A stretch of 63,589 nt of DNA, the filler included, from an uncultured Methanosarcinales archaeon (GTDB lineage Archaea; Nanobdellota; Nanobdellia; Woesearchaeales; CAYZNE01): the NCBI GenBank assembly GCA_964405295.1. It is 5 parts of 4 records of this genome, joined end to end, with 100 filler letters (N's around TTAATTAATTAA, not from the genome) between each part and the next. Parts side by side here need not be neighbours in the genome. Positions count along the whole stretch, not along the records: positions 11,045 to 42,817 come from CAYONI010000002.1; 4 more parts are not named here. One strand, given 5' to 3'. The notes below the pieces were generated by a model that saw only the letters and a list, made by a program, of their open reading frames with translations, searched no databases and was not told where the DNA came from. A program made the position numbers and the translations under genes. Positions 9,187 through 48,177 of this stretch are shown in pieces (the stretch's first letter is position 1; each line of letters starts with the position of its first letter).

Positions 9187-9286
9187 NNNNNNNNNNNNNN
9201 NNNNNNNNNNNNNNNNNNNNNNNNNNNNNNTTAATTAATTAANNNNNNNNNNNNNNNNNNNNNNNNNNNNNNNNNNNNNNNNNNNN
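9187..9286. other. Artificial contig linker (N-TTAATTAATTAA-N)
   Basis: Six-frame stop linker embedded in Ns; identical at 10945-11044, 42818-42917 and 48076-48175. Confidence 0.95.
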
Positions 9287-10912: not shown

Positions 10913-11069
10913 AATTTCCCCATTTGATTCGGCTTCTAGAATATNNNNNNNNNNNNNNNNNNNNNNNNNNNNNNNNNNNNNNNNNNNNTTAATTAATTAA
11001 NNNNNNNNNNNNNNNNNNNNNNNNNNNNNNNNNNNNNNNNNNNNAAAATCTTTCCACAAAAAGGTAGTT

Positions 11070-16625: not shown

Positions 16626-17014
16626 ATGCCAGCAAAAAAGAAAAAAACGACTAGAAAAAAAGTTACTAAAAGAAAAGTTGTTAAGAAGAAAAAACCTGTA
16701 AAAAGGAAAGCAGCTAAGAAAAGAGTAACTAAAAGAAAAGTTGTTAAGAAGAAAAAACCTGTAAAAAGGAAAGCAGCTAAGANNNNNNNNNNNNNNNNNN
16801 NNNNNNNNNNNNNNNNNNNNNNNNNNNNNNNNNNNNNNNNNNNNNNNNNNNNNNNNNNNNNNNNNNNNNNNNNNNNNNNNNNACTAAAAGAAAAGTTGTT
16901 AAGAAGAAAAAACCTGTAAAAAGGAAAGCAGCTAAGAAAAGAGTAACTAAAAGAAAAGTTGTTAAGAAGAAAAAACCTGTAAAAAGAAAGGTTGCTCGAA
17001 AAAAGAAAAGATAA
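16626..17014 (+). CDS. Lys/Arg-rich histone H1-like repeat protein spanning a scaffold gap
   Basis: GAGGTG RBS; 21-aa/63-bp repeat TKRKVVKKKKPVKRKAAKKRV on both sides of the gap; stop at 17012-17014. Confidence 0.75.
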
Positions 17015-17030: not shown

Positions 17031-17085
17031 TTCCGATTATTCGGTGCCAATAAGTCAGTTTGATTTATTGAGTATTTTATTTTTT
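17031..17085 (+). repeat. 3'-UTR structured repeat, copy 1
   Basis: ttccga-ttat-tcgg TGCCAATAA gtca-gtt-tgat TTATTGAGTA then T-rich tail. Confidence 0.8.
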
Positions 17086-24787: not shown

Positions 24788-25212
24788 ATGGATAAAAATA
24801 ATAATATGATTTTGATTGCTATTGTTGCAATAGTTGCAATTGTNNNNNNNNNNNNNNNNNNNNNNNNNNNNNNNNNNNNNNNNNNNNNNNNNNNNNNNNN
24901 NNNNNNNNNNNNNNNNNNNNNNNNNNNNNNNNNNNNNNNNNNNTGGATAAAAATAATAATATGATTTTGATTGCTATTGTTGCAATAGTTGCAATTGTAG
25001 GAATTGTTGTTGCATTTGCCGGAGGTAAAGCAGCACCTGTTAATGATGCAGTAAATACTGGTGGATTGGCTGTTAGTCGAGGTAATTTAGAAGATACAGC
25101 TACTACAACAGTTATTCTGGATGGTTATCTTGATTGTCGTAGTCCTAATGTTTGGGTTAGGCCCCCTGGTAAGTGTATAACAAAAGAAGAATTAGCAACA
25201 CTTATCAAATAA
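24788..25212 (+). CDS. Small secreted protein, paralog B (interrupted by scaffold gap; may hide further copies)
   Basis: Same MDKNNNMILIAIVAIVAIV leader read on both sides of the gap; unrelated C-terminus. Confidence 0.65.
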
Positions 25213-27268: not shown

Positions 27269-27395
27269 GTCACTCTTTAAACCTTGCTTTCTTTTAAAGT
27301 TTTCTAAGAAATTCCGCACAAAATATATAAACCAGCACATGCTGCGTATAATAAAGAGAGAATAGGCATGTATGTTTGTTCTCAGAGGCGAAAAA

Positions 27396-29303
27396 ATGAG
27401 TGTAATAAATGTAACTTTTCCTGATGGAAATGAAGAAGAATTTGAAAAAGGCGTAAGTGGGTATGATGTAGCTAAGTTTATTAGTGAAGGTCTTGCAAAT
27501 AATGCTTTAGCTATAAAGGTAGACGGAGTTCTACAAGATTTAGGCACAATCCTAACTGAGCATTGCCAGATTCAAATAATTACATTCAAAGATAAAGAAG
27601 GTAAAGATATTCTTAGACATAGTGCTGCGCATGTAATGGCTTGTGCAGTTAAAAGACTTTATCCTGATGTTAAAGTTGCAATCGGCCCTTCAATAGAAAA
27701 TGGTTTTTATTATGACTTTGATAATGTAAAAATTTCAAGTGAAGATTTTGCTAAGATTGAAGTTGAAATGAAAAAAATAATTAAGGAAAAACTTCAATAC
27801 ACAAAAAAAGTTGTTAAAAGAGAAGAGGTATTGGCTATATTCAAAAATGAACCATATAAACTTGAATTAATTAATGAGTTGGGTGCAGCAGAAACTATTT
27901 CAACTTATACACTAGGTGAATTTGTTGATTTATGTAGAGGGCCACATATTCCTCACACTGGAAAAGTTAAAGCTTTCAAATTAATGAAAGTTGCAGGTGC
28001 ATATTGGAGAGGAGATTCTAGTAATAAAATGCTTACAAGAATTTATGGAACTGCATTTTATGATAAAAAAGATCTTAAAGAATATTTAACTCTACTTGAA
28101 GAAGCAGAAAAAAGAGATCATCGAAAAATAGGTAAAGAAATGGATCTTTTTTCATTTCATGAAGAAGGACCTGGTTTCCCTTTCTGGCATAATAATGGCT
28201 TAATTCTTAAAGGTGAATTAATGAAGTTTTGGAGAGAGTTACATTCTGAAGATTATGATGAAATTACAACTCCAATTATTCTTAGTAGAAAACTTTGGGA
28301 AACTTCTGGCCACTGGGATAATTATAAAGAAGCAATGTATTTTACACAAATCGATAAAGATGATTATGCGATAAAGCCAATGAATTGTCCAGGAGGAATT
28401 CTTATTTATAAGAATAATCTTCACTCTTACAAAGAGTTTCCCTTAAGGATTGCAGAGCTTGGTCTTTGTCATAGGCACGAAATGACTGGGGTATTGCATG
28501 GTCTTTTTAGGGTAAGAATGTTTACTCAAGATGATGCGCATATTTATTGTTTACCTGATCAGTTGCAAGATGAATTAGTTAAAGTTCTCGAGTTAGCATT
28601 TGATGTATACAAGCCATTTGGGTTTAAAGGGTTACACATTGAGTTGTCAACTAGGCCTAATAAGAAGTTTATTGGAAAAATTGAAGACTGGGACCTTGCA
28701 GAAGCTGCACTAAAAGCTGCTCTTGAGAAAAAAGGAATTGATTATCAATTAAATGTTGGTGACGGTGCATTTTATGGACCAAAGATTGATTTTCATATTA
28801 AAGATTCTATGAATAGAACTTGGCAGTGTGGAACTATCCAGCTTGATTTTAATCTTCCTGAAAGATTTGATTTGCGTTTCATGGGTGAAGATGGAAATAT
28901 GGATCATCGACCAATAATGATTCATAGAGCAATTTTCGGTTCATTAGAAAGATTTATTGGAATTCTTATCGAGCATTATGCAGGAAAATTGCCCTTATGG
29001 TTAAATCCTGTTCAGGTGATTATTGTTCCTGTAAATGATACTGTCAAAGTGTATTCTGAAAAAATAAATTCTCAATTACATGGATCAAGCATAAGGTCAA
29101 AAGTTGATTTAAGTGATGACTCGTTAAATAAGAAGATTCGGAATGCAGAGTTAAAGAATATTAATTATATCTTGGTTGTTGGTAATAAAGAAGAGAAGAA
29201 CAAGACAATTAATGTTCGAACAAGAGACAATGTTGTTCATGGTGAAGAAAAAGTTGATAAGCTTATTTCTGATTTAACGCAAGAGATTAAAGATAGAAAG
29301 TAG
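27396..29303 (+). CDS. thrS: Threonine--tRNA ligase (TGS-domain, bacterial-type architecture)
   Basis: RHSAAH, DLCRGPH, KPMNCP, FTQDDAH, FYGPKID; start MSVINV after GAGGCG. Confidence 0.95.
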   Translation: MSVINVTFPDGNEEEFEKGVSGYDVAKFISEGLANNALAIKVDGVLQDLGTILTEHCQIQIITFKDKEGKDILRHSAAHVMACAVKRLYPDVKVAIGPSIENGFYYDFDNVKISSEDFAKIEVEMKKIIKEKLQYTKKVVKREEVLAIFKNEPYKLELINELGAAETISTYTLGEFVDLCRGPHIPHTGKVKAFKLMKVAGAYWRGDSSNKMLTRIYGTAFYDKKDLKEYLTLLEEAEKRDHRKIGKEMDLFSFHEEGPGFPFWHNNGLILKGELMKFWRELHSEDYDEITTPIILSRKLWETSGHWDNYKEAMYFTQIDKDDYAIKPMNCPGGILIYKNNLHSYKEFPLRIAELGLCHRHEMTGVLHGLFRVRMFTQDDAHIYCLPDQLQDELVKVLELAFDVYKPFGFKGLHIELSTRPNKKFIGKIEDWDLAEAALKAALEKKGIDYQLNVGDGAFYGPKIDFHIKDSMNRTWQCGTIQLDFNLPERFDLRFMGEDGNMDHRPIMIHRAIFGSLERFIGILIEHYAGKLPLWLNPVQVIIVPVNDTVKVYSEKINSQLHGSSIRSKVDLSDDSLNKKIRNAELKNINYILVVGNKEEKNKTINVRTRDNVVHGEEKVDKLISDLTQEIKDRK

Positions 29304-29304
29304 T

Positions 29305-29400
29305 TTCCGATTTTCGGTGCCAATAAACACAATAATAAAGCATTATTGGTTATTCAAGAAAGTTGAATAAAATATTGTGTTTATTGAGCATTTTATTTTT
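29305..29400 (+). repeat. 3'-UTR structured repeat, copy 2 (long branched core)
   Basis: ttccga-ttt-tcgg TGCCAATAAacacaata ... tattgtgtTTATTGAGCA tttt. Confidence 0.8.
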
Positions 29401-41397: not shown

Positions 41398-41700
41398 ATG
41401 GAATACGTATATGCAGCAGTGCTCTTGCATAAAGCAGAAAAAGAAATTAATGAAGCTTCAATAAAGAAAGTGCTTGAAGCAGTCGGTATAAAAGTTGATG
41501 ATGCTAAAGTTAAAGCTTTAGTTGCAGCATTAGAAGGTGTTAACATTGAGGAAGCAATTAAAACTGCAGCAGTAGCTCCAGTGGCAGCCGTTCCTGTAGC
41601 AAGTGCACCAGCAGCAGACACTCCTAAAAAAGAAGAAAAGAAAGAGGAGAAGAAAGCAGAATCTAATGCAGCTGCAGGTCTAGGTGCTTTATTCGGATAA
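41398..41700 (+). CDS. rpl12: 50S ribosomal protein L12 (P1)
   Basis: [11 protein letters not shown]...[10 protein letters not shown]. Confidence 0.95.
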
Positions 41701-41770
41701 TTCCGGTTAACGGTGCCAATAAATTCAAAGAATTTAAATTCAAAGAATTTATTGAGCATTTTTATTTTTA
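41701..41770 (+). repeat. 3'-UTR structured repeat, copy 3 (internal 15-bp duplication)
   Basis: ttccg-gttaa-cgg TGCCAAT [aaattcaaagaattt]x2 ATTGAGCA ttttt. Confidence 0.8.
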
Positions 41771-42816: not shown

Positions 42817-42937
42817 TNNNNNNNNNNNNNNNNNNNNNNNNNNNNNNNNNNNNNNNNNNNNTTAATTAATTAANNNNNNNNNNNNNNNNNNNNNNNNNNN
42901 NNNNNNNNNNNNNNNNNAGAACTCCGTTTGGAATGTT

Positions 42938-44130: not shown

Positions 44131-44292
44131 ATGACAAAAGCAATTAAGCATTCTTATGGATGGTCTTTGACAATATTTATTCTAGCAATTATTGTTGCAA
44201 TACTAGGATTAATAAAAATAGAGTTAAGTGTAACATTCTTATTACTAGCAATATTTTTGATGTCTGCAGCAACATTCATCAAAATTCATTAA
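44131..44292 (+). CDS. Small two-TM protein (53 aa), absent from ORF track
   Basis: AGGAGGT RBS; MTKAIKHSYGWSLTIFILAIIVAILGLIKIELSVTFLLLAIFLMSAATFIKIH. Confidence 0.65.
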   Translation: MTKAIKHSYGWSLTIFILAIIVAILGLIKIELSVTFLLLAIFLMSAATFIKIH

Positions 44293-44308: not shown

Positions 44309-44345
44309 TTCCGTTTATTAATGCCAATAATTTATTGAGCATAAT
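44309..44345 (+). repeat. 3'-UTR structured repeat, copy 4 (minimal/degenerate)
   Basis: ttccgtttattaa TGCCAATAA t TTATTGAGCA t. Confidence 0.7.
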
Positions 44346-48075: not shown

Positions 48076-48177
48076 NNNNNNNNNNNNNNNNNNNNNNNNN
48101 NNNNNNNNNNNNNNNNNNNTTAATTAATTAANNNNNNNNNNNNNNNNNNNNNNNNNNNNNNNNNNNNNNNNNNNNCA

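Follow-up and report, generated by a model that had tools for sequence, protein, structure and literature searches.

The window, that is, the whole stretch of 63,589 nucleotides analysed here, joins pieces of contigs C1, C2, C3 and C12 of one archaeal genome (G000; 1.27 Mb, 31.5% GC, 96.8% complete). Its N-runs at 9187-9286, 10945-11044, 42818-42917 and 48076-48175 are joins of separate contigs or contig pieces, across which neighbours are not real, and those at 16783-16882 and 24844-24943 are 100-N scaffold gaps. The depositors' label Methanosarcinales on the closest relatives is taken for a mislabel, and the host is taken for a member of the Woesearchaeota. Four copies of a short structured repeat occur in the window, each following the stop codon of a different gene:

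16883..17014, + strand: 3' part of a Lys/Arg-rich (H1-like) ORF, the stop of which precedes copy 1; the 5' part lies beyond the N gap
17033..17074, + strand: copy 1, hairpin A 17033-17044 and bulged hairpin B 17045-17074, 11-nt core
27372..29303, + strand: thrS, upstream of copy 2 (Pfam tRNA-synt_2b, TGS, tRNA_SAD)
29307..29390, + strand: copy 2, hairpin A 29307-29317 and hairpin B 29318-29390, 54-nt core
29327..29380, - strand: nested module of two hairpins that forms the core of copy 2, inverted with respect to the module in the copy at G000 C3:65535
41398..41700, + strand: rpl12 (acidic ribosomal protein), followed by copy 3 (Pfam Ribosomal_60s)
41703..41758, + strand: copy 3, hairpin A 41703-41713 and hairpin B 41714-41758, 26-nt core
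44131..44292, + strand: hydrophobic ORF of 53 aa that precedes copy 4, with counterparts conserved in the relatives G001-G003 and no Pfam match
44311..44341, + strand: copy 4, degenerate hairpin A 44311-44321 and minimal hairpin B 44322-44341, 1-nt core

A first-pass annotation of the window had listed four repeats lying 0-17 nt after stop codons on two contigs, with cores of different size, and this description was reproduced throughout: TTCCG begins at 17031, 29305, 41701 and 44309, the distances from the stops are 16, 1, 0 and 16 nt for copies 1 to 4, copies 1-3 reside on C2 and copy 4 on C3, and the cores measure 11, 54, 26 and 1 nt, respectively. The single unpaired A ascribed to every outer stem is present in copies 1-3, which fold on the + strand with z-scores of -4.6, -3.8 and -3.2, whereas copy 4 folds more weakly (z -2.4, with 7/200 shuffles folding equally well) and its hairpin A has lost the CGG arm. 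The stem of hairpin B in copy 1 contains G.T pairs. In scans with a covariance model, which was built from 57 short-core copies and matches these training copies by construction, E<1e-6 was reached in the window by the four copies only, copies 1 and 4 being training members.

Throughout the family, the unit of the element is a hairpin A followed by a bulged hairpin B, the two abutting each other and being flush at both ends, with a total length of ~35-110 bp. Hairpin B follows the architecture TGCC-stem...stem-G[A]GCA, in which one extrahelical base is located three pairs above the foot and the loop is freely variable, its core having a median of 7 nt and a range of 1 to 62 nt. Among 307 distinct copies, the feet TGCC / GAGCA are present in 277, the bulged base is A in 295 and T in 12, and the base following B is C or T in 254. 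An upstream hairpin A closed by the base 5' of B, or by the next one, was detected in 177/307 copies, compared with 53 in shuffled and 56 in downstream controls. It begins with C or T in 165/177 copies, is preceded by the dinucleotides TT (60), AA (42), GA (12) and others, and ranges from an 11-nt mini-hairpin in the genus of G000 up to an inverted copy of B in the genome G135. The two bases before B, which mostly close hairpin A, are GG in 168, TG in 41, CA in 35, AG in 28 and CG in 23 of the 307 copies. Head-to-head doublets of B are common in G135, mostly within larger MITEs, and are not the usual form in G000.

The covariation anticipated for the stems was found, with 97.7% of the cells paired and five pairs showing two-sided changes in a 57-row alignment, the pairing score of which was reached by 0/500 shuffles and is partly circular because the alignment was built from motif matches. 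With the arms left free to vary, stem 5-mers, which occur in four interchangeable spellings, were complementary in 102/125 metagenome matches as opposed to ~40 expected by independence, a ratio that is not a p-value because the copies share ancestry. Moreover, G.T pairs exceed A.C pairs in the stems by 10 to 5, a weak excess. The long cores consist of nested modules of similar architecture, with further nested forms in G002, and these long "variable cores" exist because the element inserts into its own loops and junctions. In copy 2, the core aligns with that of the copy at G000 C3:65535 with a score of 68 as reverse complement and 22 in the same sense, and the nested module is itself a weak covariance-model match (29320-29375, minus strand, E 0.079).

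The repeats are far more frequent than in shuffled controls, as the annotation had expected of a genuine family. A genome-wide pattern search in G000 yielded 22 exact left and right pairs, and a relaxed scan gave 35 matches, at least one of which is a chance match in a coding region, versus 0, 0, 0, 0 and 2 in five block-shuffled genomes (strict scan, 28 versus 0). At E<=0.05, the covariance model matched 51 times in G000, 26 in G001 and 48 in G002, while G003 gave 2 weak matches; at E<=0.01, 47 remained in G000, four weaker ones being dropped. No matching Rfam family was found for the window or for the element loci. Across 401 genomes of the phylum, a degenerate exact pattern for hairpin B was present in 61/278 genomes of the same order (60/400 overall without G421, the one unpublished genome among the 61) and in 0/123 genomes of other orders, and a reversed-pattern control gave 0 matches. 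Under strict filters, the covariance model was positive in 23/151 genomes of the order, and the hairpin-forming matches in a collection of named records belong to entries titled Woesearchaeota, Nanoarchaeota, Nanoarchaeia or Nanobdellota. G135 alone contains 92 exact pattern matches, many of them carried by multi-copy MITEs. Separately, 37 viral matches to the motif were set aside, nearly all being chance coding matches.

The repeats represent a mobile, non-autonomous DNA element. When filled and empty sites were compared as the annotation had proposed, 21 copies of two close relatives gave a G000 site that was empty in 8 cases, filled in 8 and without a clear call in 5, three more distant loci having no usable synteny; filled shared sites in G000 often differ in the core and in hairpin A. 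All four sites of the window are polymorphic among G001-G003. The site of copy 1 is filled in G002 and empty in G001, that of copy 2 holds a different short-core copy in G002 and is empty in G001, that of copy 3 carries a longer nested copy in G002, an A-like remnant only in G001 and an unrelated hairpin in G003, and that of copy 4 has no copy in G002 or G003 and a degenerate variant in G001. G003 carries a broken IS200 tnpA element upstream of gyrB (C23:9097-12420), close to where copy 1 lies in G000.

The ends of the element are defined exactly by insertions into coding sequences. The elp3 gene of G000 contains an exact 36-bp antisense copy, which is in frame, adds 12 residues and is absent from the orthologues in G001-G004; in G135, an unrelated longer stretch occupies its position. 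Because this exact insertion can be compared with empty alleles, the leading TT and the T-run are target DNA, and the earlier consensus, which had included a leading TT and a T-tract, is incorrect in that respect wherever empty alleles exist; T-tracts are also present at empty sites. The tail of uS5 in G000 (C3:68752-69820), a long C-terminal one, likewise has a nested in-frame copy in antisense orientation. In an IS200 tnpA family of G135, an empty allele (L488) occurs alongside L410, with a +51-nt in-frame insertion, and L429, in which a second unit of +52 nt sits at the A|B junction and another of +53 nt at the codon for the catalytic tyrosine, each insert being A+B with flush ends and without target duplication. 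Target-site duplications are absent at elp3, in the G135 tnpA series and at tRNA T-loop junctions, and insertion usually takes place directly before a pyrimidine. We infer the direction of change, insertion rather than precise loss, from absence in outgroups. Neither a circle junction nor excision was seen, in that no joint skipped a copy among the matches listed (DNA contigs of four runs).

The targets comprise the T-rich ends of genes, tRNAs at the T-loop and at other arms, IS200/IS605 elements at their ends and in their genes, ORFs, and the loops and junctions of the element itself. Of the 47 G000 matches at E<=0.01, five are tRNA-linked, two lie within an IS200-derived MITE and 40 elsewhere; 35 of these 40 are in sense orientation <=130 nt from a stop and five are antisense or intragenic, the classes being hand-assigned on crude ORF calls. 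Seven copies in the distant genome G274 were placed by eye in T-rich spacers, several just past stop codons. With respect to replichores, 27 copies are leading and 18 lagging (p=0.23; 55% of genes leading, strand from GC3 skew). Among 35 tRNA calls in G000, five have a duplicated 3' end <=400 nt away; in each of these the element sits at the T-loop, antisense in four and sense in one, adjoining a fold-back copy of the T-arm. In other genomes, tRNA insertions are found in both orientations and at other arms, with sense copies in G055. Hence the uniformly sense orientation noted previously is correct inside the window and fails genome-wide, where the copies in elp3 and uS5 are antisense and the tRNA-linked copies face both ways.

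Several individual loci were recorded in addition. The end of the Trm1 ORF at G000 C4:48940-50019 overlaps a copy on the opposite strand. At G000 C1:52311-52427, a copy is antisense to the 3' flank of a 5S rRNA gene, since this minus-strand gene ends just past it, and on a large metagenome contig (L291:2001-2301) a copy is situated directly at the end of a cas2 gene. A conserved structured non-coding segment of ~120 nt at G000 C7:23700-23800, which is inverted between G000 and a relative and has no Rfam match, has been entered twice independently by the element. Copies within IS200/IS605-type ends occur in G000, G003 and G135: the region G000 C5:61430-61700 is an IS200-derived MITE remnant, with a right end matching IS200 copies of G003 and several hairpin modules inside, and G135 has at least two multi-copy MITE families of ~290-330 bp and 86-100% identity, built from IS200/IS605-type ends plus stacked hairpin modules.

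The predominance of gene 3' ends prompts one to ask if the repeat is primarily a cis-acting RNA motif, acting in termination, processing or stability and selected at gene ends, as one of the earlier suggestions (a 3'-processing/stability RNA) would have it. Such a role accords with the 35/40 sense copies near stops once tRNA- and MITE-linked copies are set apart, with the T-rich spacers of G274, with the combination of a hairpin and a T-tract, with the weak excess of G.T over A.C pairs, and with shared sites at which the ends are kept and the cores change. Yet congeners differ in whether the repeat is present at housekeeping genes, elp3 and uS5 contain antisense copies in frame, copies face both ways in tRNAs and lie inside transposase genes, and the T-tracts exist at empty sites too, so that an RNA motif as the primary nature of the repeat is very unlikely. 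Since the element is found in tRNA T-loops, facing either way, and in IS200/IS605 ends as well, sense 3'-end placement is a local bias, which in this genus most likely reflects T-rich terminator targets combined with selection against harmful sites. What stands of the suggestion is the bias itself, because of which the copies may serve, in a secondary role, as mRNA 3'-end hairpins. In a bacterial-style terminator scan no copy was flagged, the stems being too AT-rich for the rule of the scan.

A mobilising enzyme was sought in several ways. Y1 transposases were found in none of G000, G001 and G002 (PF01797 in 41 relatives; the MAGs are incomplete), neither a tblastn search with 16 Y1 protein queries nor an HUH regular expression gave a match in G000, and in a 68-genome panel Y1 was not enriched (10/34 motif-rich versus 9/34 further genomes, p=1.0), the "negative" genomes lacking the exact pattern only and possibly holding variants, and kin not being independent. 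In five copy-rich genomes, RAYT (NF047646) gave nothing above the cut-off, TnpB was present in 0/5, IS110 in 1/5 (absent in G000, G001 and G002), DUF559 as one weak match, and reverse transcriptases in 3/5, that of G000 on a small contig. This 4-kb contig (C54) encodes a 355-aa reverse transcriptase, has neighbours unlike those of the main contigs and is possibly foreign to the bin. Small GIY-YIG forms were found in 10/34 versus 5/34 genomes (p=0.24), with the motif not nearby. At 92 loci around candidate enzymes, the model matched at two only, both insertions in or near tnpA, with no REPtron, and at 50 Y1 loci the motif was not found at element ends, its two matches being insertions in or beside tnpA with a known empty allele. 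What looked like a REPtron in G135 was discarded because its hairpins lie inside or downstream of an IS200 tnpA for which an empty allele exists, and a divergent motif pair in G094 encloses, by eye, no transposase-like ORF. No recurrent nuclease emerged when 469 flank proteins were clustered or when adjacent ORFs were scanned with Pfam (104/113, nine duplicates or probably non-archaeal ones being left out). The co-occurrence check proposed for RAYT, TnpA and tyrosine recombinases, once run, gave nothing consistent and showed none of the linkage expected for REP or attC systems. Taken together, the searches for Y1, RAYT, TnpB, IS110, GIY-YIG and integrases yielded no mobiliser, and the enzyme may be lost or transient in G000.

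Tyrosine recombinases were considered separately, as the same element might be moved by XerA or an integron-like integrase acting on a folded single strand, in the manner of attC or phage attP hairpins. The bulged hairpin with its variable terminal structure and the median B core of 7 nt would fit, as would the distribution of a 278-aa integron-like tyrosine recombinase, which is intact in the copy-rich genomes G000, G001, G002 and G135 and frameshifted in the copy-poor G003; furthermore, the left arm of hairpin B bears what we take to be a resemblance to the bacterial XerC-binding arm. However, this recombinase has an array of its own, located at G000 C2:111500-115544 and composed of small unrelated ORFs and long TAAC-type hairpin spacers, unlike the element, with the recombinase gene terminal. 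Its subfamily is not enriched (9/34 versus 6/34 genomes, p=0.56), and 30 recombinase loci contained three descriptor matches of the element, none as an array spacer. At the junctions in elp3 and tnpA, the bases of element and target are not identical, unlike a recombination core, and core lengths span 1 to 62 nt, which together make this route improbable. An XerA-like recombinase scoring above the NF040815 cut-off is encoded in the window itself, at 28-693 (G000 C1:170278-171102).

A further possibility is that no dedicated enzyme exists and that host repair or replication copies the hairpins by cruciform nicking, template switching or gene conversion. This would agree with a copy-rich genus in which no candidate mobiliser was found, with same-site cores that differ between relatives and can be inverted, and with the fold-back and tandem duplication accompanying tRNA insertions. 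It does not readily produce ends that are precisely flush in targets unrelated to one another and lacking homology, and the one bulge position is fixed over dozens of genera, which implies a specific protein reader; copying by the host alone is accordingly a slim prospect.

Overall, the best explanation is that the repeats form a non-autonomous two-hairpin element moved as folded single-stranded DNA by an enzyme acting in trans, which we consider likely. According to this model, the enzyme would read the foot and the bulge of hairpin B and nick the element at its two outer feet (5' for A, 3' for B), and the nicked ends of A and B would then be joined to give a small closed dumbbell with A and B stacked. 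The dumbbell would subsequently open again and be joined to targets exposed as single strands or hairpins; joining of A and B in such a closed form would explain why both ends are flush.

As to the chemistry, an HUH/Y1-like enzyme related to IS200 TnpA or RAYT appears the most likely candidate given mobility, a proposal drawn from analogy on which we are about evenly divided. According to PMC3479197, TnpA-REP requires a stem bulge and forms a 5'-phosphotyrosine at a pyrimidine, and passages of PMC6006769 report that some TnpA-REP genes hold in-frame copies of their own repeats and that IS200/IS605 elements prefer the lagging-strand template. Against such an enzyme stand the absence of Y1 in G000-G002, the lack of enrichment, of a REPtron and of a replichore bias, and the want of a fixed guide or target tetranucleotide; moreover, simple peel-and-paste leaves the T-arm fold-back at tRNA insertions unexplained. 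A more far-reaching reading, tentative and on balance somewhat unlikely, is that of an order-wide class which moves as a closed two-hairpin dumbbell, nests in itself, relies on an enzyme other than a Y1/RAYT transposase or a known integrase, and has been domesticated in some lineages as a gene-3'-end structure; as part of the same tentative reading, the enzyme would belong to an unrecognised family or be a co-opted host enzyme.

How REP-like repeats spread is unsettled even in bacteria, and a literature search found no REP-like system with a known enzyme for these archaea. Since its ends are known exactly, alleles occur both empty and filled, nested insertions form a series within a single genome and presence or absence is recorded over hundreds of genomes, the mobiliser of the element can be hunted directly. 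In addition, the element accounts for several oddities of these genomes: tRNAs with duplicated 3' ends or intron-like inserts, proteins with short in-frame insertions, and contigs that break at repeats.

Among known systems, Rickettsia palindromic elements insert in frame into conserved genes, including those of tRNA-modification enzymes. The element does likewise, though it is shorter, of different structure and archaeal, as far as a comparison by description only can tell. For attC sites, the defining anatomy consists of R boxes and an unpaired central spacer. The element shares with them an extrahelical base and a variable terminal structure, but lacks the RYYYAAC / GTTRRRY boxes and the unpaired central spacer and has no adjacent integrase; its copies follow housekeeping genes instead of forming an integrase-linked cassette array, and the integron-like array of this genome uses other sites, so that an attC identity is not supported. 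Archaeal integrons are treated in bioRxiv 10.1101/2022.02.06.479319, and Rickettsia palindromic elements are mentioned in PMC3733652. A classical MITE was rejected, A+B copies having neither terminal inverted repeats nor target duplication, and so was a PATE, as the element is not derived from IS200/IS605 subterminal palindromes and TnpA was not found in G000-G002. It resembles IS200/IS605 ends and PATE/MITEs in its dependence on hairpins and the absence of duplication, and co-occurs with them in G000, G003 and G135; unlike them, it is inserted into such ends and into tnpA rather than being an end itself, and has neither a fixed 4-5 nt target 5' of its left end nor a replichore bias.

A description of the family was not found in a literature search that left most subscription papers outside, and the accessible part of an archaeal IS survey (PMC13343696) does not treat such elements. 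The closest parallels are bacterial REP/REPIN/BIME repeats, associated with RAYT, and the SMR elements of Haloquadratum. Like the former, which an excerpt of PMC3733652 places downstream of and within genes, the element is a small multicopy imperfect hairpin with a conserved bulge, lies mostly downstream of genes, and has in-frame copies inside ORFs and Y1 genes, as in TnpA subclass 2.4; inverted doublets occur in G135, there mostly within larger MITEs. It differs from REPs in that the hairpin foot bears no GTAG/GTGG/CGTC tag, REPtron and RAYT were not found, the unit is a flush A+B heterodimer, the host is archaeal, and insertion into tRNA T-loops with 3'-end duplication is frequent. SMR-A and SMR-B, as portrayed in PMC3119063, are archaeal, 80-110 bp long and transposase-free, make no target duplication and enter IS605-type palindromes and PATEs by a mobilisation called enigmatic. 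The element is likewise short, transposase-free, free of duplication and directed at IS605-type ends. The same descriptions (PMC3119063) set it apart, SMRs being characterised by terminal inverted repeats and high identity, whereas the element has internal hairpins, fixed feet, highly variable loops and A and B ends unlike each other, with SMR-like terminal inverted repeats in the B-B doublets of G135 only. The earlier idea of a REP-like hairpin family has thus held up, through covariation, the lack of an Rfam match and the filled and empty sites in relatives, and by analogy the family appears to act, order-wide, like REP/REPIN and Haloquadratum SMR elements.
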